The notes beneath the pieces were generated by a model that saw only the letters and a program-made list of their open reading frames with translations, was not told where the DNA came from and ran no database searches. Shown in pieces: positions 45,269 to 61,408 of a DNA stretch of 64,000 nt. The DNA is from an uncultured candidate division Zixibacteria bacterium (GTDB lineage: Bacteria > Zixibacteria > MSB-5A5 > GN15 > FEB-12): positions 256,001-320,000 of the forward strand of contig CAWDXE010000007.1 in NCBI GenBank assembly GCA_963806185.1, read 5' to 3'. The translations under genes were made by a program, and so were the position numbers. Each line of letters begins with the position of its first letter. The first letter of the stretch is position 1.

Positions 45269-45989
45269 CATCGCTGCAAGCGGCAGTATACAGTTCGCAC
45301 CCCGGGATGAATTGTCCGCTCCGCCTTTGTTCCCGGTTTCCATTGCATTTTTCGTGAATTCACCACCCGCACGCGTGTTCCCGTTCGCACTGGGAATGTT
45401 ATTGTGTGACTGGCATTTACCTGCCGTCTGACCGGTGCGGTACGAGCGTGGTTCGTCAAAAAATCGGTTCGACCGCGAACCCAAATTGCCTGAATTGCCG
45501 TTATACCTGTATATGTGTGGGATGGCAAAACGGTCAGGCATGTCGGCAATTGCTTGCCTGGCTGTGGGGGTGTAGGCGATAGCCTGCAGTCGACCGTTGC
45601 TCGCCGACACAGTCGCAAGTATATTGATCATACTTGTCCATCAGAGCTGTTCGATTGGGATTTGGAGTGTGACTTGGACTTTCGAATCCTGAGACCCGCG
45701 ATCACGACCGCTTGGTATCGAAGTTGACAGGATGTCAAGCGGTGCAGGCCGATCAGAATCCGCATTCCGCGTCACCCGAAAGATAAATGGAGCGCCCTAG
45801 GACCGATTCGCTATTTCACCAGCTGTGCGACAGCGACCTGCAGTCCCTGCTCAGGCGCTCCGAATGACCAGTTTTGTCACAGGGTCACATGTGGCTACGG
45901 CAAGGAACGAATTCGCCCGGGATCAAATGATCCAGAAACACCAGACCGTCTCAGCACGAAGACAGCCCTGCTGAGTGGAGGAGGCCGAC

Positions 45990-46298
45990 ATGAAGATTTC
46001 AGAAATCCAGGTCACCTTGCGCAACGAGGACAAACTCAAGGGATTTGTGAATGTCACCTTTGATGATTGTTTTGTCGTCCGGGGACTGAAGATCATACAG
46101 GGCACCAAAGGGTATTTTGTTTCTATGCCGAGCCGAAAGAGGGAGGATGGAACGCATCGCGATATTGCCCATCCCACCAATCCCGAAATGCGCAAACTGA
46201 TCGAGGACAGCGTCCTCAAAGCATACGCGGCCGCCTATGCCAGGGAAGGCAAAGGACATGGCGCGTTGACTGGTACTCCCATCTCCAACCAAAGTTAG
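45990..46298 (+). CDS. spoVG: SpoVG-family nucleic-acid-binding regulator
   Basis: LKGFVNVTFDDCFVVRGLKIIQGTKGYFVSMPSRK..DGTHRDIAHP; RBS GGAGGAGG. Confidence 0.95.
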   Translation: MKISEIQVTLRNEDKLKGFVNVTFDDCFVVRGLKIIQGTKGYFVSMPSRKREDGTHRDIAHPTNPEMRKLIEDSVLKAYAAAYAREGKGHGALTGTPISNQS

Positions 46299-46617: not shown

Positions 46618-47586
46618 ATGCCGATGCCGACTTCACCAACTATATTGCCCGCCGACACTATGAAACCGGGCATCGAGACCTCGTCCTCTCTCCCAGGGCG
46701 GCCTCCGGGCGACCGGTCCGCCACTCGCTGGCGGATCTTCTGGGGTATCGTCTATTTCCTGGCTGCAGTTGCGATAGTCTGGTTCTTTGTGCACGGCCAC
46801 AGCTACTATTCAACTCCGCTGGCGGATCGGCCGCATCACCCTGATTATCGTCAGCTTCGACCGGCCGGGATGACCGGCCTGGGGTATGGCGTGGTCGGCT
46901 CGGTCATGATGATCGTTATGCTGGTGTACACGCTCCGCAAGCGCGTGCGAATGTTTGGACGACTGGGGAATCTGCGCCAATGGCTGAATTTTCATATGTT
47001 TCTGGGCGTCGTCGGGCCGTTACTAATCGTGCTGCACACCTCGTTCAAAGTACAGGGACTGGTGGCGATCAGTTTCTGGTCGATGGTATTGGTGGCGGTG
47101 AGCGGATTTTTCGGACGATTTCTTTACGTGCAAATTCCCCGGAATATCAACGGTGACGCACTGAGTCTCGCGGAACTGGAACAGGAAATGTCAGTGCTCA
47201 CCCGCCGCCTCCGAGGCGAATTTGGTATTCCCGAGGACGGCCTGGAGCGTATCGATAAGATCGCCGTGGCCGCGTCAACCGATCATGGCCTCGGCGCCCT
47301 GATGCGTTTGATCGTGGGCCGGGGAGTGTCGAAGATCCGCGTTCACGGTCGGGTGAAAGCCGCGCTTCTGGGCGTGTGGACCGGCACCGACCTCGAACTT
47401 CGTGCCTTGAGCAGCCTGGTACATCGTAAGGCTACCATTCAACTTCGCACACGAACCCTGGGACAAGTGCAGCAGCTCTTCCACTATTGGCACGTCTTTC
47501 ACAAGCCATTTGCGATCATCATGTATATCGTCATGCTGGTACATATCGGAGTGGCCGTCTGGACGGGGTACACGTGGATCTTTTGA
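46618..47586 (+). CDS. Cytochrome b-like inner-membrane protein (ferric-reductase-like TM)
   Basis: TM His pairs WLNFHMFLG...LIVLHT and WHVFHKPF...MLVHI; YTLRKR; GRFLY.QIP. Confidence 0.75.
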   Translation: MPMPTSPTILPADTMKPGIETSSSLPGRPPGDRSATRWRIFWGIVYFLAAVAIVWFFVHGHSYYSTPLADRPHHPDYRQLRPAGMTGLGYGVVGSVMMIVMLVYTLRKRVRMFGRLGNLRQWLNFHMFLGVVGPLLIVLHTSFKVQGLVAISFWSMVLVAVSGFFGRFLYVQIPRNINGDALSLAELEQEMSVLTRRLRGEFGIPEDGLERIDKIAVAASTDHGLGALMRLIVGRGVSKIRVHGRVKAALLGVWTGTDLELRALSSLVHRKATIQLRTRTLGQVQQLFHYWHVFHKPFAIIMYIVMLVHIGVAVWTGYTWIF

Positions 47587-47588
47587 GA

Positions 47589-49271
47589 ATGACCCGACAT
47601 TGCCGAGGCATTCTGATCGTCGGTTTGGTGATAGCTGTGGCGGTCAGCGGAGCGATGGCTCAGCTGTCGCCGGGCGATCTCAGCGAGGGTCACGCGTCAC
47701 TGGAAGGCGTGAAGAATTGCACCAAATGTCACGACAGTGACCAGAACCTGGTCGCCGACAAATGTCTCGCCTGTCATACCGCGCTAAAGGCCCGTGTCGA
47801 TTCGGGAAGGGGGCTTCATGCCCGCCCCGAACAGGCGGAATGTCAGCATTGCCATGTCGAACACCAGGGGAAAGACTTCGCCCTGGTCTACTGGAAAGAC
47901 GGCGAGCACAATTTTGATCATGCCCGGACCGGCTACGTTCTGGAAGGCGGCCATCGGAAACTCGCCTGTCGGGATTGCCATAAGAGTCAATTTATGAAGG
48001 CAACCGATCAACTGGCCCAGCAAGCGGTCAACCTCCAGCGCACCTATCTGGGGCTGGACCGCGACTGCCGAAACTGCCACGCCGATGAACATCGGGGCCA
48101 GTTTACGCAGGCCTGTACCGAGTGTCACACCCAATTGGCGTGGAAACCAGCGTCCGGATTTGCCCACGACAAGAGTGCTTTCGCACTGGCGGGGAAGCAC
48201 CGAGACGTCGCCTGTGAGAAGTGCCACACCCTTATGCTTGAACAAGGCGGGGGGGAGGATTCGCTATTCTTGCAGTTTACCCGAATCGCCCACAATCAAT
48301 GCAGCGACTGTCACAAAGATCCCCACCAAACGCGCCTGGGGGCCGACTGTGCGCGCTGTCATACGGCCGATAGCTGGAGACAGGTCGCAGCGACCGATTT
48401 CGATCATAGCAGGACCCGGTTCCCGCTGACCGGCAAACATGCGGCAGTGCAGTGCGAGAAGTGTCATGCGGCGGGCCAGCGCGCTGCCGCGCTCAAATTC
48501 GACAATTGCCGCGATTGCCACACCGACTATCACAAAGGGGCGTTTGTCAATCGAGCCGCCAAAGGCGCCTGCGAGGAATGTCACACGGTATCCGGTTTCA
48601 GGCCGGCCGCCTTCACTCTGGCCCAGCACGATTCTACCGACTTTGCGCTGGCCGGTGCTCATCTTGCCATTCCGTGTCTGGCGTGCCACAAGACGGAACG
48701 GGGCGAACCCGCTCGCTTTGTATTCAAATCAATGGTATGCAGCACCTGTCACGCCGACGTGCACCAGGGTTCGCTCATTAACGTTATGGCGGATTCCGGC
48801 TGCACTGCCTGTCATTCGGTGGAGCGGTGGACGTCCGTCATCTACGACCACGCGGCCAAAACGCAATTTGCCCTTGAAGGAAAGCATGCCGCCGTCGCCT
48901 GTAACAAATGTCATAAGCCGTCAGATGTCGCTCAGAGCGCCATCGTCTTTGGCAAGCTCTCCACTCAATGCGGGAGTTGTCATCAGGATCCGCATCGCGG
49001 TCAATTCGCCTCAACTGATGACGAGAGGGCCGCGCACCAGGCTGTCACCGGATGCGATCGTTGCCATTCGGTCAACTCGTGGCAGCCGGAGCGGTTCAAT
49101 CATGCCACGGCTAGATTTGTGCTCGACGGCGCCCACAGCCGCGTGGCCTGTACCGGCTGCCACAAGTCAATCTTCGAAAACGGAAATGTATATACGGAAT
49201 ATATAGGCACGGCCACCACATGTGCCGCCTGTCACGGGAGCAAGACCCCATCCCCGCGAGGTGACTTATGA
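47589..49271 (+). CDS. Multiheme cytochrome c, 20 CxxCH
   Basis: Signal peptide; QLSPGDLS.GH N-terminus; 20 CxxCH counted by hand in triheme repeats (FDH..T.F.L.G.H). Confidence 0.93.
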   Translation: MTRHCRGILIVGLVIAVAVSGAMAQLSPGDLSEGHASLEGVKNCTKCHDSDQNLVADKCLACHTALKARVDSGRGLHARPEQAECQHCHVEHQGKDFALVYWKDGEHNFDHARTGYVLEGGHRKLACRDCHKSQFMKATDQLAQQAVNLQRTYLGLDRDCRNCHADEHRGQFTQACTECHTQLAWKPASGFAHDKSAFALAGKHRDVACEKCHTLMLEQGGGEDSLFLQFTRIAHNQCSDCHKDPHQTRLGADCARCHTADSWRQVAATDFDHSRTRFPLTGKHAAVQCEKCHAAGQRAAALKFDNCRDCHTDYHKGAFVNRAAKGACEECHTVSGFRPAAFTLAQHDSTDFALAGAHLAIPCLACHKTERGEPARFVFKSMVCSTCHADVHQGSLINVMADSGCTACHSVERWTSVIYDHAAKTQFALEGKHAAVACNKCHKPSDVAQSAIVFGKLSTQCGSCHQDPHRGQFASTDDERAAHQAVTGCDRCHSVNSWQPERFNHATARFVLDGAHSRVACTGCHKSIFENGNVYTEYIGTATTCAACHGSKTPSPRGDL

Positions 49272-51592
49272 TAGCGCGCATCCTGCCCTTCATCGCTTTG
49301 CTCATACTCGTCATCACGGTTGCGGCCCAGCGTGCTGACACGAATCCTCACGGCAAGCTGGCCTTCGACTGCGAGACCTGTCATACGACCGGTTCCTGGC
49401 AGCAATTGAAATCGCCCCTGCCGTTCTCGCACGACAAAACGGGATTTCCCCTCAAAGGGGCGCATCGACAGGCCAACTGCAACGGGTGTCACCGCAATCT
49501 TGTCTTCTCTCAAGTGAGTGTCGCCTGCGCCGACTGCCATCAGGACGTCCACGCCGGCCGACTGGGGACGGATTGCCAAAGCTGCCACATGCTTGACTCC
49601 TGGAGCAATCGAAAGGACCAGATTGCCACCCATGCCGATCGTGGCTTTCCGCTGACCGGCGTGCATGCCATTTCCGACTGTGCTGCCTGTCATACCACCG
49701 AGACATACGATGATTTTAAGGCTGTTGCGATAACCTGTCGCGGCTGTCACGAGCAGGCGTATCTGACAGCCGATAATCCCGATCACAAACTCGCCGGCTT
49801 CGCCGGCGACTGCGAACAGTGTCACCACGCCGCCGCCGGCTCGTGGCAGCGAACGACGTATCAGCATACGTCGGTTTTTCCATTAACCAACGGCCATCAG
49901 AAGGCAGAGTGCGTGGCCTGTCACGCCACCCAATTTGCAGCGACGTCGGGCGACTGCTACTCCTGCCACCAGCCTGATTACACTCAAGCGCAGGATCCAA
50001 ATCACCAGCAGGGCGGCTTTCCGACTAACTGCACGATGTGCCACACGACTGTTGCCTGGACACCCGCTAGTTTTGATCACGCCACCAGCAGTTTCCCGCT
50101 GACCGGGGCCCATATCGGCGTTCAATGTGTCTCCTGCCACTCGTCTGGGTATGTCGGTACGCCGACTGACTGCTATTCCTGTCACCAGAATGACTTTGCC
50201 TCGACCGATTCACCGAATCATGTGCAGTCGCAGTTCCCGCATACGTGCACCTCGTGCCACACCACCACCTCCTGGTCGCCCTCAACATTCGATCATAATG
50301 GGACCGGATTCACTCTCACCGGCGCGCATACGTCAGTATCCTGCGTTTCGTGTCACAGCTCCGGGTATGCCGGCACGCCGACCGCCTGTTATTCCTGCCA
50401 CCAGTCTGATTATGCGGGGACGACCGATCCGAATCATGCGCTGGCCGGCTTTTCAACCACGTGCACGCAGTGCCACACCACGGCCTCCTGGGGGAGTGCT
50501 AGCTATGACCATGCCGGGACAGGCTTCCCGCTGACCGGGGCGCATGTCACTGTCCAGTGTTCTTCGTGCCATGCATCGGTCTACGCCGGAACTTCGACCG
50601 ACTGCAATTCATGTCACAACGCCGACTATGTCGCAACCACCAATCCTAATCATGCGCAGTTGGGGTTTCCCACCACGTGTGTAACGTGCCATACTACGGC
50701 GGCATGGTCGCCGGCTTCCTTTGACCACACCAGCACCGGTTTCACTCTGACCGGCAAGCACACTACAGCCGCATGCCTCGATTGTCATTCCAGCGGCTAT
50801 GCAGGTACGCCGGCCGATTGTTATTCGTGTCACCAAAGTGATTTCACGGGCGCGACTGATCCGAATCACACCCTTGCCGGTTTTGCCGTGACCTGCGGCG
50901 ATTGCCATACCACCGCCGGGTGGTCACCGTCGAGTTTCAACCACTCGACCACCGGCTTTACGTTGACCGGTGCACACGTCGGCGCTACGTGTATCGCCTG
51001 CCATAGCACGGCCTATGCGGGCACGTCATCTGACTGCTACGCCTGCCATCAGTCGGATTACACCTCGGCGGCCGATCCCAATCACGTGCTGGGCAATTAT
51101 CCTCATACCTGTACCTCGTGCCATACCACCACAGCCTGGGTACCGGCCAGCTTTGATCACAATACAACCAGTTTCCCGTTAACGGGCGCACACCTGTCGG
51201 CGGCCTGCCTGGCTTGTCATAGCTCCGGCTACACGGGTACTCCGACCGCTTGCTATGCCTGCCATCAGTCCGATTATGCCGGTACAACCGATCCGGTCCA
51301 CACGGCGGCGAACTTCCCGACAACCTGCCAATCGTGCCACACTACCTCGGCCTGGCAGCCCTCTACCTGGGACCACGATGCACAATATTTCCCGATCTAT
51401 TCCGGCAAGCACAGCGGAGTATGGAACCAGTGTTCGGACTGCCACGTGAGCGCTGCCAACTACGCGGTGTTTGAGTGCATCAATTGTCACGAACACAACA
51501 GAACAGATACCGATGGTCATCATACCGAGGTCAGCGGTTACCAGTACCTCAGTACCGCCTGCTATACCTGTCATCCGCGAGGTACTCACTGA
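49268..51592 (+). CDS. Multiheme cytochrome c, 31 CxxCH
   Basis: Signal peptide; 31 CxxCH counted by hand; Thr/Ser-rich 72-aa triheme repeats. Confidence 0.93.
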   Translation: MIARILPFIALLILVITVAAQRADTNPHGKLAFDCETCHTTGSWQQLKSPLPFSHDKTGFPLKGAHRQANCNGCHRNLVFSQVSVACADCHQDVHAGRLGTDCQSCHMLDSWSNRKDQIATHADRGFPLTGVHAISDCAACHTTETYDDFKAVAITCRGCHEQAYLTADNPDHKLAGFAGDCEQCHHAAAGSWQRTTYQHTSVFPLTNGHQKAECVACHATQFAATSGDCYSCHQPDYTQAQDPNHQQGGFPTNCTMCHTTVAWTPASFDHATSSFPLTGAHIGVQCVSCHSSGYVGTPTDCYSCHQNDFASTDSPNHVQSQFPHTCTSCHTTTSWSPSTFDHNGTGFTLTGAHTSVSCVSCHSSGYAGTPTACYSCHQSDYAGTTDPNHALAGFSTTCTQCHTTASWGSASYDHAGTGFPLTGAHVTVQCSSCHASVYAGTSTDCNSCHNADYVATTNPNHAQLGFPTTCVTCHTTAAWSPASFDHTSTGFTLTGKHTTAACLDCHSSGYAGTPADCYSCHQSDFTGATDPNHTLAGFAVTCGDCHTTAGWSPSSFNHSTTGFTLTGAHVGATCIACHSTAYAGTSSDCYACHQSDYTSAADPNHVLGNYPHTCTSCHTTTAWVPASFDHNTTSFPLTGAHLSAACLACHSSGYTGTPTACYACHQSDYAGTTDPVHTAANFPTTCQSCHTTSAWQPSTWDHDAQYFPIYSGKHSGVWNQCSDCHVSAANYAVFECINCHEHNRTDTDGHHTEVSGYQYLSTACYTCHPRGTH
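50029..51340 (+). repeat. Intragenic tandem repeat, 216 bp / 72 aa triheme unit, six well-conserved copies
   Basis: CxxCH-27aa-CxxCH-10aa-CxxCH-20aa repeated from heme 10 (CTMCH) to heme 28 (CQSCH). Confidence 0.85.
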
Positions 51593-53199
51593 TGACCACG
51601 CGTATCCTCATGGCAATCATGTGCGTTGTCTGCGCGACGATCTCTGCCTATGGCCAGACACCGGTGGCTGTGTCCTACCTCTCGGCTGACCACGTCTACC
51701 TGAGCGGTGGACGAGCGGAGGGGCTGCAGCTTGGCCAGCAGGTCATCGTTCTTCGAGAAGGAAAAGTAGTGGCAACGCTCGAAGTAGTGTACCTCGCCGA
51801 TCACTCTGCTTCCTGTACAATTGTCGAATCAAAGGGTGCGATCCAGACTGGAGATTTGGTCGACATTCCAATTCCGGCTTCTGGTGATTCAGCCGCTACG
51901 AGCACTACCGCGACCGACTCAACTGCCGTTGTTCCGCCCAAAGTCGAGTCTACACCTGCGCCAGTTTCCGCACGTACGACTCCCCGGCCCGATATCTGGG
52001 GTAGTCTCGCGATCGGCGCGCTTGGCTGGCGCGACAAGGACTCCGACGATCGCGATTACACCCAATCGAATGTCCGACTGAATCTGCGTACCCGGCATCT
52101 GATGAACGACCGGTTGACGTTGTCCTTGCGGTCACGAGGGCGGTACGACGAGCGGAATCGAACATACCGTTCCGCTGCCGATTCACGCGTCTGGCTGAAT
52201 CGACTGTATGAAATGTCGGCGGCGTACCAATCGGAGGATAAGCATTGGCGTGCGAGTTTCGGTCGTATGCCGATTCGCAGCGTCGCCGCTTTAGGAGTGC
52301 TGGACGGCCTTGTTGTCGAACGCGACCTCAGCGGCTCTTTCTCGCTCGGCGCGTTTGGCGGCCTGCAGCCGCAGTGGCAGTACAGCGAAGGACGGGCATC
52401 CCTCAGCCGCTTTGGCATCATGAGTGAGTTCCGACAGACTTTCGGTGAGGTGTCATGGAAGTCGTCCGCCGCCCTTTTGCGTGAGTATCACAGTGGCGAG
52501 ATTAACCGCGACGCCCTCATGCTGCAGAGCTATGCCGGTAGTCGCGACCGATGGCAAGCCTCTTTGCTGGCTGAATTCGACTACAATTCCGGATGGCGAA
52601 AAGTACGCAGCGGCTCAACCTTCACGCTGTCCTCCGTATACGCCTACCTGCGCTATCGGGTGATCGAGGGACTCTCCATCAACACCAACTACGGCAGTCG
52701 TCAAACCGTCTGGCTATGGGACTATCGGGATATCGCCGATACCTTGCTCGACGAGCGCACGCGTCGCTGGTCGCGAGTCGGCATCGACCTTTCCCCCTCG
52801 ACTCGATGGGCGCTTGGCGGCACCGTTGGCGCCTACTTTCAGGATGCACGGAGTCGTCGCCAGCTATCCAGTACGGTCTACGGCCGCCTCAATCGGCTGT
52901 GGGACCCGCGATCTACCTTCTGGTCGCAGTACACGATGAGCGAGGGAATCGGCGAAAGGGCGCATACCTATTCCGTTCGAATTACCCAGGGTTTCCGCCG
53001 CCTCGATCAGTTTAGTGTGGCATTTGGTGAGAATTCATATAAGGTTACAGACGCGGACCGACGGAGCAGTTGGTGGGCAGAGGGCGAATTGCAGAACGAA
53101 CTGGTCGACCGGGTAATGCTCCGCCTTCGCTATCGACATGCCGCAGGCGATGATTTGCGCGGCAGTCAATTTGAGACGGAATTGGGATATCGTTTCTAA
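51592..53199 (+). CDS. Outer-membrane beta-barrel protein (putative cytochrome porin) with N-terminal beta domain
   Basis: Signal peptide; small N-domain (HVYLSGGRAEGLQLGQ); Thr/Pro linker; alternating beta strands; C-terminal beta signal ELGYRF. TGATG coupling to the 31-heme gene. Confidence 0.8.
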   Translation: MTTRILMAIMCVVCATISAYGQTPVAVSYLSADHVYLSGGRAEGLQLGQQVIVLREGKVVATLEVVYLADHSASCTIVESKGAIQTGDLVDIPIPASGDSAATSTTATDSTAVVPPKVESTPAPVSARTTPRPDIWGSLAIGALGWRDKDSDDRDYTQSNVRLNLRTRHLMNDRLTLSLRSRGRYDERNRTYRSAADSRVWLNRLYEMSAAYQSEDKHWRASFGRMPIRSVAALGVLDGLVVERDLSGSFSLGAFGGLQPQWQYSEGRASLSRFGIMSEFRQTFGEVSWKSSAALLREYHSGEINRDALMLQSYAGSRDRWQASLLAEFDYNSGWRKVRSGSTFTLSSVYAYLRYRVIEGLSINTNYGSRQTVWLWDYRDIADTLLDERTRRWSRVGIDLSPSTRWALGGTVGAYFQDARSRRQLSSTVYGRLNRLWDPRSTFWSQYTMSEGIGERAHTYSVRITQGFRRLDQFSVAFGENSYKVTDADRRSSWWAEGELQNELVDRVMLRLRYRHAAGDDLRGSQFETELGYRF

Positions 53200-53222
53200 C
53201 TGTTCGAGCGTATAAACCGGTG

Positions 53223-54566
53223 ATGGATTCCTACCTGATTTGGATTGCCGCGGGTGCACTGGTACTCATCGTTTTCGTCCCTTACTTCATCAGCTTTCGG
53301 AAGGAGCGTAAGGCGGCTGAGTTGCGCAAGAAAGAAGCAGCTCACCTCGGCCTCGATCAAGCGCGGGCACAGTTTCCCTTTATCGACAGTGGCATGTGTA
53401 TTGGCTGCGGTTCCTGCGTAAGCGCCTGCCCAGAGGGTGATGTACTGGGAGTTGTGTTCGGCACCGCTGCGGTCATAAATGGTGAGCGGTGTGTCGGCCA
53501 CGGCTACTGTGAGACAGCCTGCCCGGTCGGTGCTATTCACGTCGGGCTTGGTGATCTCTCCTCGCGGCCCGATGTCCCCCTGCTTACCGAGAATCAGGAG
53601 ACAACCGTTCGCGGGCTCTACATTTCAGGGGAACTGAGCGGACTCTCACTCATTCGCAATGCCATCGCCCAGGGTGCGACCGCCGTCGATCATATTGCCA
53701 GGTCCGGCAAGCAGCAACTTTCGGACGTATTTGACGTGGTGATTGTCGGCGCCGGTCCGGCGGGAATGAGCGCCGCCTTGACCGCCAGAAAACACAATCT
53801 CTCATACCTCGTACTTGAGGAACTGGGGATAGGTGGAACAATTCTCCACTATCCGAGAGCCAAACTGGTCATGACACAACCGGTCGAGATACCGCTTTAT
53901 GGCTGGCTCAAGCAGGAAGAGTACAGTAAAGAAGTCCTGATGACGACATGGCAGGAAATAGCCGCCCGGTTTTCGCTGAAAATTCACACCGGTGAGCGTG
54001 TCGAACAAGTCCAGAAGCAGGGTGATGTCTTTACGGTCCTGACAAGTCTCGACGCGTATCGCGCGCGTAACGTCGTCCTTGCGATGGGGCGCCGGGGAAC
54101 TCCCCGACGACTTGATGTCCCGGGCGAAGACCTCCCCAAGGTCCTGTATTCACTCATTGACGCACAGAGTTACCGCAACTCCCACGTCCTGGTAGTCGGC
54201 GGTGGCGACAGCGCGGTCGAAGCAGCCGTCGGTCTGGCCCGTCAGCCCGGCAATACAGTGACCATTTCATACCGCAAGACGAGCTTCTTCCGCGTGAAAA
54301 AGAAGAACGAGGATCGTATCAACCAGCTCATCGCCCAGCGGAAGGTCAGGCCGATTTTTGAGTCCCAGGTCCGCGATATCTCGCCGGGATCGGTTCTCCT
54401 CGCCACGCCCCAGGGAGAGTATCCGGTTCCCAACGACGCGATTTTCGTCTTCATCGGGGGAATTCCGCCATTTGATATGTTGAAGGCGATGGGTATCGAA
54501 TTCGGTGGCAAGCCGAAGACTATGCGTGACGAATTAAAGCCCCGTAATGCCGCTCTGGCGCGATAA
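53223..54566 (+). CDS. Membrane-anchored 2x[4Fe-4S] ferredoxin fused to a TrxR/YpdA-like FAD/NAD(P)H oxidoreductase
   Basis: N-terminal TM; CIGCGSCVSACP and CVGHGYCETACP; GLYISGEL; VGAGPAG; MGRRGTPRRL; VGGGDSAVEAA; SYR. Confidence 0.88.
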   Translation: MDSYLIWIAAGALVLIVFVPYFISFRKERKAAELRKKEAAHLGLDQARAQFPFIDSGMCIGCGSCVSACPEGDVLGVVFGTAAVINGERCVGHGYCETACPVGAIHVGLGDLSSRPDVPLLTENQETTVRGLYISGELSGLSLIRNAIAQGATAVDHIARSGKQQLSDVFDVVIVGAGPAGMSAALTARKHNLSYLVLEELGIGGTILHYPRAKLVMTQPVEIPLYGWLKQEEYSKEVLMTTWQEIAARFSLKIHTGERVEQVQKQGDVFTVLTSLDAYRARNVVLAMGRRGTPRRLDVPGEDLPKVLYSLIDAQSYRNSHVLVVGGGDSAVEAAVGLARQPGNTVTISYRKTSFFRVKKKNEDRINQLIAQRKVRPIFESQVRDISPGSVLLATPQGEYPVPNDAIFVFIGGIPPFDMLKAMGIEFGGKPKTMRDELKPRNAALAR

Positions 54567-54584: not shown

Positions 54585-55337
54585 CTACAGCGGATGATTC
54601 ATCCAGACATTGGGCTCGACATACACGCCACGGTCGCGATCTCGATCAATAGTGATCGGATTTAGAGCACCAGCGACCACGTAGTCTCCCGATTCGGGGA
54701 ATTTTATTTTTGTCCAGGATTCCCACTGGGCAATCGTTCCGGATATTTCCATCGAACGGTGACACGGCTTGACGATTCGGGCGCCGTCCAGTTCGTGTAT
54801 CCTGATCCACGGATCGAACGCCGAATTATCTTCACGGCGCCAGGTAACGTACCGGTCGATCGGGGTCAGGGGATAGAGTGGTTTCAGGTTCGGCCGGACG
54901 GGCGCGATGAGTTGCTTCAACCGATTGGTACGGCCGATCTCCTTCATATAATGTAGCATTTGTCGGCTGAGTCCCTGGCCGCGAAGGTCCGGCTTAATCA
55001 CGATTTGCAGGGCGCAGAGCGTCCGAGGCTGCAGGTTGGACCGTGCGTCGTCGACTCCCTGCTCCAGCGCCCAATCCCATCCTTCTTCCGGCAACGATCC
55101 GAGATCGTCGGCCCAATGCAAAGGAAGGCAATTGGCGGCAGCCACAATCTCACCTGAACCGGGATCCAGCATCTGAAATTGGTACTCCAGAAAGGCTTCA
55201 AAGAGCACCTTGAACAATCGATTGGCTATCGGATCTTCGTTCATGAAGGGCGGCCACAGGGGGCTCGTAAACTTATTGATCGGAAGCAACTCGGGTCGCT
55301 CCGCGCTCGTGACAATCGGTCCGTAATTTGTAGCCAT
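54585..55337 (-). CDS. GNAT-like acetyltransferase/transferase
   Basis: PDLRGQGLS acetyl-CoA motif; LIAPVRP; FDPWIRIH; EPNVWM. Confidence 0.75.
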   Translation of the reverse strand: MATNYGPIVTSAERPELLPINKFTSPLWPPFMNEDPIANRLFKVLFEAFLEYQFQMLDPGSGEIVAAANCLPLHWADDLGSLPEEGWDWALEQGVDDARSNLQPRTLCALQIVIKPDLRGQGLSRQMLHYMKEIGRTNRLKQLIAPVRPNLKPLYPLTPIDRYVTWRREDNSAFDPWIRIHELDGARIVKPCHRSMEISGTIAQWESWTKIKFPESGDYVVAGALNPITIDRDRDRGVYVEPNVWMNHPL

Positions 55338-55524: not shown

Positions 55525-57135
55525 ATGAACGCCCTGCAGCAGAGCTACGCAACCTTATGCCGACCCGGCCTTATGGCCGCCTTGTTGGCCATCGGTATTG
55601 CCGTGTCAGCCCGGGCTGACACACTTAACTTTCCCACCAATCTGGATAGCGCTCTCTCGGTAACTTTGACCGGATTCGCCGGAACGCCGATATCGCTGTC
55701 TGAATCACAGGCCAAGGCCATGCAGCAGGCCACAGCGGTTCGCGAGGCCGAAGCCGCGCTTCGGGCTGCCGAGGGTGCGCGACGCCGCGAGCGGGGATCT
55801 TTTGACCCGGAGCTATTTGCCGATATTCGCAAATCTCGAGCCGACGAACCGGCTGCGTCTGCGTTCGCTGGAGCCAACGTCGTCAATTCCGATCAGACTG
55901 TAACGTCGACCGGGGTCCAATGGCAGCTTCCATTCGGTACTCGATTCGAGGCGGCTCTCAATGCCACCCGCCTCAAAACGAATTCGACCTTCAGCACGCT
56001 CAATCCTCAATACAGTGCTAACGGTTCTCTAACACTTGTTCAGCCACTCCTGCGGGGATTTGGGACTGCGGCTCAGGCGGAACTCAGCGCTACCGGTCGC
56101 GAGCGCGAAGCCGCTCAGACTCGCTACGATCTGGCTGTCGTATCAACGGCCGTAGACGTAGAGAATGCCTACTGGGATCTCTTTGCCGCCGAGCGGGATC
56201 TTGCGGTCCAAATGCTTGTGCGTGAACAGGCGCAGGTGCTTCTGGATGAAGCCCGCATTCGGGCGGCGGCCGGGTTGGTGGGTCCTAACGAGGAAGCAAC
56301 GGCTCAGGTTTTTCTGGCCGAACAGGATCAGGCTGTCCTTGATAGGGAAGAAGCCCTGGACCGTGCGTCAAATTCCTTCGCCTCCCTCATTGGCAGTCGC
56401 CCCAGCCAGGGCCAAATTCCCCGGTTTCGTCCGTCCGACAGCCCACCGCTTGAGGTTCCCAGATTCGGCGACGTTGAATCGCTGGTCAAAGCCGCCATGG
56501 CACGAAGTCATTACGTGCGCTCCGCGGAACTGGCTCTCGACGCGAGCCGCGTCCGGTACAAGGGGGCCAAATGGAACGCACTCCCCCAACTCGATCTCAT
56601 CGGCGCGATTGGTGGAAGCGGCCTGGCTGGTGAGGCCCAGCAAGTGATTTTCGGAACCGACACGTTGACTTCTGCCTTCGGTGGGAGTTCGGGCGATGCG
56701 GTGAGCGACGTGTTCAAACGATCGTATCCGAGCTGGACGGTTGGCGTACGCTTCTCCTTGCCGATTTTTCTCCGCCATGGTCGCGGCGAACGCGACCGCT
56801 TGCGCGGAGAGACCGATCAAGCCGAACAACAGCTGATCGCCGTCAAACGATCTGTCGAAGAGCAAGTGTACAATCGATATCAGGAGCTTGATCACGCTCG
56901 CCGCCGACTTGAGGCGGCCAGGACAGGTGTGACCGCTTCGCAGGAACAAGTGCGCATTGGGGGTCTCGAATACTCTGCCGGCCGAACCACGGCGTTCGAG
57001 CTGGTTCGCCTGGGCGCCGATCTGGCCAGCGCCCAGCAACGCTATTCTCAGGCGCTGGTTCGCGCCGCCAAGGCTTCAGCGGAATTGCGCCGTCTTCTGG
57101 CCGGCAGTCTCGATCAGGAAACAAGAAAACTCTGA
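55525..57135 (+). CDS. TolC-family outer-membrane efflux protein
   Basis: QPLLRGFG, VENAYWDL, LPQLDL, FSLPIF, YSAGRTT. Upstream of MFP and RND genes. Confidence 0.9.
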   Translation: MNALQQSYATLCRPGLMAALLAIGIAVSARADTLNFPTNLDSALSVTLTGFAGTPISLSESQAKAMQQATAVREAEAALRAAEGARRRERGSFDPELFADIRKSRADEPAASAFAGANVVNSDQTVTSTGVQWQLPFGTRFEAALNATRLKTNSTFSTLNPQYSANGSLTLVQPLLRGFGTAAQAELSATGREREAAQTRYDLAVVSTAVDVENAYWDLFAAERDLAVQMLVREQAQVLLDEARIRAAAGLVGPNEEATAQVFLAEQDQAVLDREEALDRASNSFASLIGSRPSQGQIPRFRPSDSPPLEVPRFGDVESLVKAAMARSHYVRSAELALDASRVRYKGAKWNALPQLDLIGAIGGSGLAGEAQQVIFGTDTLTSAFGGSSGDAVSDVFKRSYPSWTVGVRFSLPIFLRHGRGERDRLRGETDQAEQQLIAVKRSVEEQVYNRYQELDHARRRLEAARTGVTASQEQVRIGGLEYSAGRTTAFELVRLGADLASAQQRYSQALVRAAKASAELRRLLAGSLDQETRKL

Positions 57136-57145
57136 GGTTATAGAG

Positions 57146-58258
57146 ATGATGCAGACTAAATCACTTGGCCGTTGGCCCCTATTGCTTTTGGCGTCGGCCG
57201 CCGCCTTCACGGTGACGAATTGTTCCACTGATCAGGCATCCGCGGACGGCGGTGGAATGAAATTCCCACCAATGCCCGTTGAGGTGGCCGAAGTCGCCAA
57301 ATCCGGTATGGTCGATCGCTTCGAAGCGGTCGGCAATATTGACGCCGTCGATCGCATTACGGTCGTCTCCGAGGTCGATGCCATCGTTAAGTCACTGCCC
57401 TTTCATGAGGGTGTGGCGGTGAGTGCGGGTGATGTCATCGCGCAGCTTGACGACGAGCAACTCCAGGCGCAAAAAGTCAGCGCCGAAGCAGTACTCAGCC
57501 AGCGCAAACTCAACTATGAACGGATCAAGTCCATTGTCGAGCAGAAGGCCGGTGCACCGCAGGCGTTGGATGATGCTCAGGCGGCCTATAGAGTCGCCGA
57601 GGCCGATCTGGCTGTGGTTGAAGCGCGGCTGAAAAAGACGCGCATCACCGCGCCGTTCAGCGGCGTGCTCGGTACGCGACGCGTCTCGCCGGGAGCGTTC
57701 CTTCGCGCCGGCAGTGAAATCACCGATCTGTCACGACTCAGCGAACTCAAGGTGACCTTTGCGGCGCCGGAGCGGTATCTCACTTCGTTGCGTCGGGGTG
57801 CCAATGTGGTGGTGACCACACCGGCTCTTCCGGATACGAAACTCGAGGGGACCATTGCTGTCGTCGAGCCGGTCGTCGATTCCATTACGCGAAGCGTCAG
57901 GCTGACCGCCCATGTGGACAATCCGGAACAGATGCTTCGCCCCGGCATGTCGGCCAACGTGTCAGCCGTGTTGGATGAACGAACCGACGCGTTGGTTGTG
58001 CCCGATGAAGCGGTTTTTGTCGAAGGAGATCAGTCACTGGTCTTCGTCGTCAAGGATGACTCTACGGTCGCTCGCACGCCCATCCGTACGGGTACGCGGA
58101 CGGCGCAACTCGTGGAAGTAGTCAGCGGACTCTCCGTGGGACAGAAGGTCGTGCGCGCGGGACACCAGAAACTGTTTGAGGGGGCGAAAGTCATGCCGAT
58201 GTCGGCTGAACAGATGCAGGGGCAAGCTCAACCGTCGGCGCCCATGGGAGCCCGGTAA
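57146..58258 (+). CDS. RND efflux periplasmic adaptor (MFP), probable lipoprotein
   Basis: Hydrophobic N-terminus ending in Cys; FHEGVAVSAGD; ITAPFSG; LRPGMSA; VVPDEAV. Confidence 0.92.
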   Translation: MMQTKSLGRWPLLLLASAAAFTVTNCSTDQASADGGGMKFPPMPVEVAEVAKSGMVDRFEAVGNIDAVDRITVVSEVDAIVKSLPFHEGVAVSAGDVIAQLDDEQLQAQKVSAEAVLSQRKLNYERIKSIVEQKAGAPQALDDAQAAYRVAEADLAVVEARLKKTRITAPFSGVLGTRRVSPGAFLRAGSEITDLSRLSELKVTFAAPERYLTSLRRGANVVVTTPALPDTKLEGTIAVVEPVVDSITRSVRLTAHVDNPEQMLRPGMSANVSAVLDERTDALVVPDEAVFVEGDQSLVFVVKDDSTVARTPIRTGTRTAQLVEVVSGLSVGQKVVRAGHQKLFEGAKVMPMSAEQMQGQAQPSAPMGAR

Positions 58259-61200
58259 TGAAAATAAGTGAACTCTCCATCCGACGTCCTGTCTTTGCCA
58301 CCGTACTCTCGCTGGCCATCGTCCTGTTCGGACTGGTTGCGTTTCTTCGCCTCCCCGTTCGCGAGTACCCGGATATTGATTCGCCGATCGTCTCCATCAC
58401 CACTTTGTATCGTGGCGCCAGTCCGAGTGTCGTTGAAAACGAAGTCACGGACATTCTCGAAGAGCAATTGTCCACTGTCGAAGGCATAAAGTCCATCAGC
58501 TCCTCGAGCCTTGAGCAGGGCTCGGTAGTGACAGTCGAATTTGAGCTCGGTCGAAATGTCGATGAGGCGGCCAATGACGTGCGCGATCGCGTCTCGCGAA
58601 TTCGCGGATCACTGCCACAGGAAGTTGACGAACCGATTGTGGAAAAGGTCGACGTCAACGCCCAGCCGATCATCTGGCTTTCGCTCCTGAGCGATCGTCA
58701 CAGTATTCTCGAATTGTCCGATGTCGCCGATCGCATCATGAAGGAGCGCATTCAGCGTTTGCCGGGCGTCGGCTCGGTCTTCATCGGCGGCGAGCGGCGT
58801 TATTCGATGCGCGTCTGGCTCGACCCTCACCGGATGGCCGCCCGCGGCGTCACCGCCAGCGACGTCGAGAATGCGATCCGCCAGGAAAACGTTGAAATAC
58901 CCGGGGGACGTGTTGAGGGACAGGGGCGTGAATTCTCCGTGCGAACGCGAGGTGATCTGGCCACGCCCGAAGAGTTCGCTGCTCATGATCGTTAAGCAGG
59001 AGAACGGTGACCTGGTGAAACTTGGTGACGTCGCCGACGTTTCGCTGGGCGCGGAGGATGATCGTACGGCGGTGCGCTACAACGGCACGACATCAGTTGG
59101 CCTCGGTATCGTTAAGCAGTCGCGGGCGAGCACACTCGACGTCGCCCATGCGGTGACCGCCGCTCTGCCGGAACTTCAGAAGATTCTCCCTGACGGCATG
59201 AAGATTCAGATGGCGTTCAATTCGGCGGAGTTTATTGAATCATCAATCAATGAAGTGAGTGAGACCCTCATCATTGCGCTTTTCCTCGTGGTCTTTGTCA
59301 TCCTGGCCTTCCTCAAGAGTTTTCGGGCGACGATCATTCCGACCTTTGCTATTCCCGTATCGATCGTCGGCGCCTTTGCCGTCGCCTACTTCCTCGGCTT
59401 CACGGTCAATATCCTTACGCTATTGGCTTTGGTGCTGGCGATTGGACTTGTCGTAGATGACGCCATTGTCGTGCTTGAGAATATCTTCCGCCACATGGAG
59501 ATGGGGAAGTCACGTCGTCAGGCGGCGCTCGATGGTTCAAAGGAAATCGGCTTCGCCGTACTGGCGACCACCATTTCGTTGGTGGCCGTGTTCGTGCCGC
59601 TCGCCTTCCTGACCGGCAACGTCGGCCGCCTTTTCAACGAATTCGGAGTGATGGTGGCCACCGCCGTGTTGATCTCCGGTTTTGTGGCGCTCACTCTCAC
59701 GCCTATGCTCTGCGCCAAGATGCTTCGCCCTCTCCACGGAGGCAGCAAGAGCTGGGCTTCCCGATCCTTCGATAATTTCTTCGAATGGCTTGACAGGACC
59801 TATGAGAAGGTCCTCCGCGCCGCTTTGCGTCATCGCGCCATTTCTCTCTCCGTCGCCGTAGTCATCATGACGGCGATCGGCGGATTTCTGTACATTCTGC
59901 CCAGCGAGTTGGTGCCGACCGAGGATCGATCGGTAGCCTTCGGTTTTGTCATTGCTCCCGAAGGTGCGACGCTCGAATACACTGACCGGTACATGCGGCA
60001 GATCGAGAGCATTCTTATGAAAGTGCCGGAGCGAGAAGGGCGTCTTTTCAGCCACCGGTCTCGGCTTCGGCGGTCCCGGGCGCGTGACCAACGGCTTTGT
60101 CGTGCTCCTGCTCAAACCACAGAGCGAACGCAGTCGTTCTCAGCAGGAAATCGTGCAGACGCTTTTCCCGCAGTTGCTCGGCATTCCCGGGGTACTTGCC
60201 TTTCTCATTAACCCGCCCGCGCTGGGCGATTTCGGCGGAAGCCCGGTTGAATATGTGTTGCAGGGTGACACCTACGAAGAACTTCAGGCGGCCGTCGGTA
60301 CGATGATGGGCGAAGCGTCCAAGCTGGGCTATGCTCATCAACATGGATACCGATCTTCGTCTGAATAAACCGCAACTGGAAGTCACCATTGATCGCGAAC
60401 GGGCTGCGCAACTCGGCGTCTCGGTCCGTGAAATCGGCTCGACTCTCGAAACCATGCTCGGTGGGCGCGCGGTTACTAATTTCAAGCGGGCCGGCAAGCA
60501 GTACGACGTTATCGCCCAGCTCAAGCCGTCTGAGCGGGCCACGCCGGATATTATCAGTGAAACCTACGTCCGTGGAAAGTCGGGGTTGGTCCAGTTGGCC
60601 AACGTCGTCAACGTAAAAGAAAACGTCGCGCCCAAAGAGCTCAACCACTACAATCGCGTGCGCTCCGCCACGATTACTGCGTCGACTGTCCCCGGAGTCA
60701 GTTTGGGACAGGCCCTCAGCGCGTCTCGATCAAATCGCGGCCACCAAACTCCCGCCGAGCATTAAGACCGATCTGAAGGGTCAGTCACGCGAATTCCGAG
60801 ACTCCAGCTCAAGTTTGTACTTCCTGTTCCTGTTCGCGCTGGTCTTTATCTACCTGGTCCTGGCGGCCCAGTTTGAGAGCTTCATCCATCCGATGACGAT
60901 TCTGCTGGCGGTACCGCTGGCGGTCGCCGGTGCACTCGCCTCGTTGTTCATATTCAAGCAAACGATGAATATCTACTCGCAGATCGGGCTGATCATGCTC
61001 ATCGGGTTGGTGACCAAAAACTCGATTCTGATCGTGGAATTTGCCAACCAGCTTCGTGAACAAGGGCAGGAACTTGCCGAGGCGGTCATTTCCGCTTCGC
61101 GGATTCGTTTGCGACCGATTCTCATGACATCCTTCGCCACCATCTTCGGCATCCTGCCGATTGCCATCGGTTTCGGCGCCGGCGCCGAATCGCGGCGCCC

Positions 61201-61408
61201 GCTGGGCATTGCGGTGGTAGGAGGCATGGTGTTCTCCACGTTCCTTACGCTCGTACTGGTGCCGGTCGTCTATACGCTGTTGTCGAGAAAGAAGGTTAGG
61301 GCCGTGGAAACTGCAACCCATCCGGCGGTCCACAAGCCGGAACTGATTCAGCAGAATCGCCCGCCTGATCCGGCGCCCAATGCCGGGTATTTCGCCGCGC
61401 CGGAATGA
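58258..61408 (+). CDS. RND efflux permease (AcrB/MdtC family); four +1 frameshifts (near 58983, 60040, 60332, 60722)
   Basis: SIRRPVFA, GLVVDDAIVVLEN, ALTLTPMLC, IGLVTKNSILIVEFA, RLRPILMTS. Fragments join to about 1048 aa. Confidence 0.92.

Follow-up and report, generated by a model that had tools for sequence, protein, structure and literature searches.

Where does an extracellular electron conduit obtain its electrons if its gene cluster also encodes a pyridine-nucleotide flavoprotein? The question is raised by a five-gene locus in a 64,000-nucleotide stretch of DNA (the window; contig CAWDXE010000007.1, positions 256,001 to 320,000) from an uncultured candidate division Zixibacteria bacterium. 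The MtrCAB/CymA, OmbB-OmaB-OmcB and Ext conduits draw on quinol. A first-pass annotation, made from the sequence alone, had proposed that this locus is wired to cytoplasmic NAD(P)H, with electrons passing through flavin adenine dinucleotide (FAD), iron-sulphur (Fe-S) clusters and heme b to a multiheme wire. The analysis presented here assigns the locus to the PCC3 type of conduit, and makes it fairly probable that electrons are carried outward from cytoplasmic NADPH via a split module resembling NOX and MsrQ, formed by a membrane protein (A) and the flavoprotein (E), into two cytochromes (B and C) at an outer-membrane barrel (D). The four-gene core was known before as a prediction; what appears to be new is the conserved NAD(P)H/Fe-S fifth component E and the wiring that it would imply.

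The five-gene locus

The genes are referred to by letter throughout.

46618-47586, + strand: A, PCC3-type inner-membrane protein (IMP), 322 amino acids (aa), with M1, M3 or M15 as possible start
47589-49271, + strand: B, 20-heme cytochrome c, predicted periplasmic (the PCC3 periplasmic multiheme cytochrome, MHC), 560 aa, 20 CxxCH motifs, 28 aa per heme
49268-51592, + strand: C, 31-heme cytochrome c, predicted outer-surface wire (the PCC3 extracellular MHC), 774 aa, 31 CxxCH motifs, 25 aa per heme
51592-53199, + strand: D, predicted outer-membrane beta-barrel, 535 aa, C-terminal ELGYRF
53220/53223-54566, + strand: E, 2x[4Fe-4S]-FAD oxidoreductase anchored by a transmembrane (TM) segment, predicted cytoplasmic NADPH dehydrogenase module, 447-448 aa

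The tight coupling described in the first-pass annotation was borne out by these coordinates, with a gap of 2 nt between A and B, overlaps of ATGA between B and C and of TGATG between C and D, and a gap of ~20 nt between D and E. Its inventory of the products also held. The two exported cytochromes carry 20 and 31 CxxCH motifs, 51 in all; D ends in ELGYRF and its predicted model is a barrel; and E consists of one hydrophobic N-terminal segment followed by Fer4 and Pyr_redox_3/2 domains (Pfam). Signal-like N-termini were read directly in the sequences of B, C and D. Shuffling the residues 1000 times yielded at most 3 (B) and 5 (C) CxxCH motifs. The host genome holds a single copy of each of the five genes.

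Genes A to D correspond to PCC3

He 2017 (PMC5566968) describes PCC3 as a proteobacterial four-gene cluster with a proposed quinone-active diheme b IMP of ~300 aa, which has five TM helices, SGxxG on TM4 and WX3HX13H on TM3 and TM5. According to the same source, the periplasmic MHC has ~21 hemes at 22-39 aa per heme, the extracellular MHC has many hemes, repeats and a composition rich in T/S/A/G, and a large beta-barrel porin is adjacent. The products of A to D agree with this description: A has five predicted TM helices, two WxxxH-x13-H motifs (H126/H140 and H295/H309) and SGxxG; the hemes of B and C are spaced at 25-28 aa; C is 42% Thr/Ser/Ala/Gly and contains a 72-residue repeat carrying three hemes; and D is modelled with 22 strands, the cellular locations being predictions.

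Homology points in the same direction. L125, a metagenome locus with the layout of cluster 1 of Sideroxydans ES-1, encodes an E homologue, a 742-aa barrel, a 17-heme and a 21-heme protein, and an IMP. Its IMP is 29% identical to A (E-value 1e-25), its 21-heme protein 29% identical to B (3e-63), its 17-heme protein 28% identical to C (4e-25, in part motif-driven), and the flavoprotein adjoining its PCC3 barrel 41% identical to E (4e-114). Given the homology of A, B and C to L125 and the fit of the motifs, the locus is, as far as sequence can tell, a PCC3 with a variant barrel.

The barrel is indeed divergent, having 535 aa and a small beta domain as opposed to the 676-862 aa and the SPOR/TPR parts of PCC3 barrels. 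D matched no Pfam or NCBIfam family, its profile found nothing below E-value 1 among the sequences of solved structures, and comparison with proteobacterial PCC3-like barrels gave no hidden Markov model match at 1e-3. Aligned by hhalign to canonical PCC3-like barrels, it reached a probability of 65% (E-value 6e-5, 315 columns) against 6 sequences only. The model of D (pLDDT 88.8) is a plugless barrel with 22 strands by count at residues 134-534 and a small N-terminal beta domain; 22 strands are also given for the L. cholodnii PCC3 porin (PMC5566968). Its closest structures are TonB-dependent-receptor barrels (Cir, Z 19.4, root-mean-square deviation (rmsd) 4.2, 358 aligned residues), with MtrB lower at Z 16.4. 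MtrB has 26 strands, and geometry gives a backbone diameter of 45-48 Å for that number and ~38-41 Å for D. A barrel too narrow for a cytochrome had been named as a ground for rejecting the proposed conduit; as regards width, these diameters suggest that a slim heme chain could fit through D.

The general layout of periplasmic cytochrome, barrel and surface cytochrome is shared with MtrCAB/CymA, Geobacter OmbB-OmaB-OmcB and Ext. Unlike in MtrCAB and the Geobacter conduits, the cytochromes have no family-level match and carry 20 and 31 hemes, in place of a decaheme MtrA. This is in line with the earlier impression that they do not resemble MtrA or MtrC: the DmsE/MtrA family TIGR03508 scored 43-44 bits on B and C (cut-off 192), and the summed scores of 37 and 50 bits for the MtrC II/IV Pfam model (cut-off 30, passed by at most one stretch) are read as a heme-motif effect. 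Exactly 20 motifs were found in 55 of 67 complete B homologues, and C homologues have 9-70 motifs and are often duplicated (loci L001-L080), a contrast that would follow from B bridging a constant distance and C being a wire that can be lengthened.

PCC4 and the porin-less IMP clusters of He 2017 (Supplementary Table 6, PMC5566968) share a related IMP motif and have 'another redox protein' beside most of them; they differ in the IMP family, in their small cytochromes and in the domain layout of the redox partner.

The flavoprotein accompanies the membrane protein

Published PCC3 clusters are four genes with a quinone link. The position of E relative to the other four was surveyed. From 101 relatives of A, the best 80 loci were kept. 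Flanks of at least 9.5 kb downstream of A and 5 kb upstream of it were available in 38 of these; most of the other 42 are truncated at the end of a contig. In all 38 well-flanked loci B, D and E were found, and C in 36 of them at the threshold used, E standing beside A each time; the five genes are thus conserved together, whereas scattered genes would have counted against the first-pass proposal. Seven gene orders were seen: E may precede A or follow B or D, and in four shorter loci it comes immediately after A. This form of the cluster is present in Calditrichota, Acidobacteriota, Zixibacteria, Ignavibacteria, Krumholzibacteriota and Bacteroidota, and plasmid pEMTOL02 of Emticicia oligotrophica DSM 17448 carries it as ccsA, A, E, B, C, D. 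The family of A comprises 959 representatives at 50% identity (E-value <1e-30), and no relative was found among viral contigs.

Whole genomes gave the same picture. Among 61 relatives, the same 14 genomes held close homologues of both A and E. Three more had a distant IMP only; in the one of these that was read completely, the cluster includes a different YpdA-like flavoprotein. In a 208-genome sample of the phylum, every one of the 63 genomes that have a close A also has E (lists compared by hand). Five genomes had E only: in three, E lies beside D on contigs that end before A, and in two the hits were partial matches to other proteins.

Flavoprotein E and its predicted cytoplasmic side

The closest solved relative of E is YpdA (E-value 7e-48), which is also its best NCBIfam match (TIGR04018, 179 bits, cut-off 340). 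Residues 170-429 can be aligned with YpdA 4-266; for residues ~121-160, a weak alignment was obtained with the C-terminal segment of YpdA and thioredoxin reductase (TrxR). As this C-terminal segment stands ahead of the FAD domain, E appears to be a circular permutation with a ferredoxin at the new N-terminus. It resembles YpdA/Bdr and the TrxR-type ferredoxin-NADP+ reductases in having FAD and NAD(P)H Rossmann domains and no CxxC outside the ferredoxin part (56 of 56 homologues), so the redox-active CxxC of TrxR is absent. The permutation (with its weak scores), the TM anchor and the fused ferredoxin set it apart from YpdA/Bdr. The second cluster motif reads CxxHxxCxxxCP; its second ligand is His in 52 of 57 homologues and in 15 of 15 of a second, proteobacteria-like set. 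R351 is invariant (57 of 57), which by a TrxR rule would indicate a preference for NADPH.

The cytoplasmic side of E is supported by gene fusions. Homologues have a median of 6 Lys/Arg residues after the anchor, and in 7 of 80 loci, all in Acidobacteriota, E and C are fused in frame via an internal basic-hydrophobic, signal-like segment (L063 (12516-16151), L068, L070, L074, L077, L079 (12567-15125) and L080; L071 was left out of the count for broken frames). Hemes of the c type are attached outside the inner membrane, and as E precedes an export-like signal and c hemes in these fusions, its domain would be cytoplasmic. A periplasmic flavoprotein, which would have undone the proposed wiring, is thereby disfavoured.

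The kinship with YpdA also brings up another function, in which E reduces a small disulfide such as that of bacillithiol and does not feed the wire; its tie to the cluster would then be regulatory, or the cluster would serve it as a side route. YpdA needs no redox-active Cys (10.1101/2020.12.02.408641), the host encodes BshC (G000:C4:277318-278400), and its next-best match to the E profile reaches only 91 bits, meaning no strong stand-alone YpdA in a genome that is 82% complete. A membrane anchor and two Fe-S clusters would be superfluous in such an enzyme, the permuted E falls far below the YpdA cut-off, and E is conserved in Sideroxydans, a glutathione user. A disulfide reductase is consequently considered very improbable.

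Membrane protein A

The four motif His residues of A are invariant in 88 of 88 homologues. The structure model (pLDDT 88.5) has five membrane helices and a long helical insert (~residues 172-290), and Lys/Arg counts place loops 107-122 and 167-290 in the cytoplasm. With the loops so placed, the pairs H126/H295 and H140/H309 would bind two hemes stacked across the membrane, making A a predicted transmembrane diheme b protein with a large cytoplasmic helical insert. Pfam (E-value 0.01) and NCBIfam gave no family match, Ferric_reduct PF01794 included; a profile of A found nothing below E-value 1 among the sequences of solved structures, and Foldseek returned no match. Two apparent fusions of A, P0229 and P0253, were discarded because they probably stem from a frameshift or from misassembly.

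The arrangement of A and E is comparable to that of MsrQ, NOX and STEAP, in which a cytoplasmic NAD(P)H flavin module supplies a membrane heme b protein and electrons move outward (PMC12525009). MsrQ, of the same broad superfamily, is fed by a cytosolic NADH oxidoreductase, and its potentials are reported to contradict ubiquinone as the donor (PMC12525009). The likeness has limits. A has His pairs on two TM helices, and its structural matches to STEAP4 (Z 7.4) and SpNOX (Z 7.2), like that to CybB, fall within the range of unrelated helical bundles. Moreover, A has no Ferric_reduct match, E has a TrxR fold with Fe-S clusters rather than an FNR fold or Fre, and the acceptor would be a 51-heme wire and not MsrP or O2.

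The flavoprotein in Sideroxydans ES-1 and similar loci

Sideroxydans ES-1, the type organism, has two PCC3 clusters, Slit_0867-0870 (cluster 1) and Slit_1446-1449 (cluster 2) (PMC5566968; Hoover et al. 2023, PMC10734462). Cluster 1 is adjoined by Slit_0866, an FAD pyridine-nucleotide oxidoreductase of 430 aa; by eye, the peptides listed for it match E (PMC12016527). Cluster 2 has no adjoining flavoprotein in the data of the same source and is flanked by a phosphohydrolase and an aldolase; the accession of a second E homologue, Slit_0525, falls between the QueC and SucC accessions, and both homologues were detected in the proteome (PMC12016527). The order in locus L126 is queC, E, IMP, a 24-heme and a 10-heme protein, barrel, sucC. 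Together with the QueC/Slit_0525/SucC accessions, this order suggests that cluster 2 of ES-1 moved away and left its flavoprotein Slit_0525 behind. The idea that E is a lineage-specific add-on missing from canonical PCC3 was rejected, as E homologues occur in ES-1 and in ES-1-like loci. In a set of 15 proteobacteria-like loci (picked by an E motif, with near-duplicates included and the taxon inferred), 13 had an IMP, and in the remaining two the sequence upstream of E runs out within 0.6 kb. Overall abundances by intensity-based absolute quantification are similar for Slit_0525 (3.1e8) and the IMP Slit_1446 (3.3e8), which is suggestive at most (PMC12016527).

PCC3 is handled as four genes or as a candidate oxidase in the consulted text of PMC10734462, PMC11429942, 10.1101/2025.02.27.639646 and PMC13386937. 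A link between the flavoprotein and PCC3 was not found in print, and Slit_0866, Slit_0525 and their accessions are absent from the main texts searched; a figure of He 2017 may nonetheless include the flavoprotein.

Some of the related loci have further features. In L125 (673-17196), PCC3 and the flavoprotein directly follow nifL, an rnf operon and a cation/proton antiporter, a setting from which a link to the redox balance of nitrogen fixation is possible. Scans of L117, L120, L121 and L129 showed a Sel1/ankyrin-repeat protein of 580-684 aa encoded after, and overlapping, the flavoprotein gene; L118, L128 and L130 have a protein of similar length there. In L121, L128 and L130, the IMP, 21-heme and barrel genes have no extracellular cytochrome between them.

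Proposed electron path and competing explanations

On the preferred reading, NADPH would reduce the FAD of E, and single electrons would move on over both Fe-S clusters, probably leaving from the His-ligated one. They would reach A at its cytoplasm-side heme (H126/H295) and be handed on to the periplasm-side heme (H140/H309). B would then span the periplasm, B or C would thread barrel D, and C would reduce an acceptor outside. For the chain put forward in the first-pass annotation, comparative support was gained from the five-gene conservation, the strict co-occurrence of A and E and the fusion that places E in the cytoplasm; the bypass of quinones stands as a proposal. The genes, the motifs, the homology to PCC3, the co-conservation and the E-C fusion are observed in the sequences, and the folds, the ligation of hemes and clusters and the topology are predictions.

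The published model differs in the electron source: A would be a quinol/quinone-active cytochrome b connecting the wire to the quinone pool, and E a co-regulated accessory, for example a quinone-reducing dehydrogenase. This model was put forward by He 2017 (PMC5566968), MsrQ also binds ubiquinone (PMC12525009), and the best structural neighbours of A include, weakly, the quinone-linked CybB and FdnI. Several further observations weigh against NADPH wiring. Two more His residues of A, H289 and H292, are invariant and lie near the cytoplasmic face, where they could make up a quinone site. The match of A to a diheme b fold is weak (CybB, Z 9.4, rmsd 3.2, 133 aligned residues, within the helical-bundle range), and a search for longer forms of A gave one protein, apparently a frameshift artefact, which is weak evidence. 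The E-C fusions join E to C and not to A, and they form one clade in a quick tree, thus representing one event. The preference for NADPH over NADH is read from R351, one conserved Arg, and the TrxR rule. The 61- and 208-genome samples overlap, and related genomes in them are not independent; locus L020 has A and 8.7 kb downstream of it without B to E, E being on another contig of that genome. Selection by an E motif means that the 15 proteobacteria-like loci say nothing about the share of PCC3 clusters without E, and cluster 2 of ES-1 is one without an adjoining copy. Slit_0525 correlated with the cluster-2 proteins over 24 proteomes (rho 0.88-0.95), and equally with SucC, RpoB and GyrB (0.89-0.95), so co-variation in the ES-1 proteome was dropped as support. 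Finally, MenB is present in the host, which points to menaquinone synthesis; futalosine genes were not found in its genome (82% complete).

The quinone model leaves two things unexplained. A dedicated NAD(P)H/Fe-S enzyme goes with A in 63 of 63 genomes and in seven gene orders, despite other quinone routes and multiheme clusters in the host, and ES-1 keeps a separate copy of E at what looks like the ancestral site. With MenB and the other multiheme clusters, ordinary quinone-linked routes are likely to run in parallel in the host. These clusters include a 42-heme protein with 6-, 6-, 4-, 4- and 7-heme neighbours and a probable barrel (G000:C1:7524-21262), and an MtrAB-like set of a decaheme protein, a probable barrel and a pentaheme protein (G000:C4:418103-421689). 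Overall, I regard a wire on the quinone pool as unlikely for this locus.

NADPH wiring could also operate in the opposite direction, with an outside donor feeding the wire and E making NADPH or reduced ferredoxin for carbon or nitrogen fixation. PCC3 was discovered in Fe(II) oxidisers, and L125 lies beside nifL and rnf genes. At late time points, the score of Slit_0866 on magnetite exceeded that on Fe-citrate (differences of 2.35 and 2.55), although with few peptides and with SucC also up on fresh magnetite (PMC12016527). Transfer to NADP+ would be opposed by the redox gap as well as by the membrane potential. It would need a donor of very low potential, and no coupling module was seen. Electron uptake, which the first-pass annotation had offered alongside metal reduction, is therefore judged energetically much less likely than export, and the inward direction as a whole is rated improbable, if less so than a disulfide reductase. 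The transcripts of PCC3 in ES-1 fall on Fe(II) (PMC8788666), which counts against an inward route and fits an outward outlet for reductant or a supply of low-potential electrons.

Outward transfer as in NOX is helped by the membrane potential and spends proton-motive force. The likely job of the conduit is therefore delivery of low-potential electrons or disposal of excess reductant, and likely neither energy-conserving respiration nor Fe(II) oxidation. Acceptors could be a metal, humic substances, a partner cell or a conductive particle.

Neighbouring genes and distant relatives

A SpoVG-like gene (45975-46298; 98 bits, cut-off 108) lies 320 nt upstream of A and is outside the conserved set as far as checked. 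Downstream, 55525-61408 holds TolC-like, membrane-fusion and RND-type efflux genes, the RND gene being broken into four open reading frames by a frameshift or sequencing error. Promoter and terminator scans gave counts near the shuffle level (promoters 5 vs 3.8, terminators 11 vs 7.2), and a terminator-like site at 54685-54700, downstream of E, carries no evidential weight.

Distant IMPs occur in other settings. In L105 (5385-17538), one accompanies a flavoprotein of YpdA type to which FHA-like and 2Fe-2S-like parts are fused; cytochromes, a Ser/Thr kinase and a cNMP-ferredoxin protein are encoded there as well (domains assigned by eye). In L108 (4974-11693), on plasmid pAM1A3 of Alteromonas macleodii, a distant IMP is flanked by a 2Fe-2S protein on one side and a cytochrome c3 on the other, with hydrogenase genes adjoining, and similar IMPs are found on 52 plasmids. 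A cluster with 61 and 20 hemes is on record for a particle-dependent Lentimicrobium metagenome-assembled genome (PMC13013709).

Implications for PCC3

Several papers list PCC3 as a quinone-linked candidate Fe(II) oxidase. If E is the electron source, this assignment is probably backwards, and PCC3 would give Gram-negative bacteria an extracellular route around the quinone pool for electrons of low potential. The idea is experimentally tractable, as A and E suffice for the key assay and cultured carriers are available in Sideroxydans ES-1 and Emticicia oligotrophica DSM 17448. More tentatively, and with somewhat greater doubt than for the locus itself, the comparisons may extend to PCC3 as a whole, which would then be a widespread, quinone-independent conduit wired to NADPH via a permuted Fe-S flavoprotein and a diheme b protein, exporting electrons far more reducing than those of menaquinol. 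If that is true, the candidate-iron-oxidase label is a misreading, and export aided by the membrane potential could serve methanogenic partners, conductive particles and low-potential metals.

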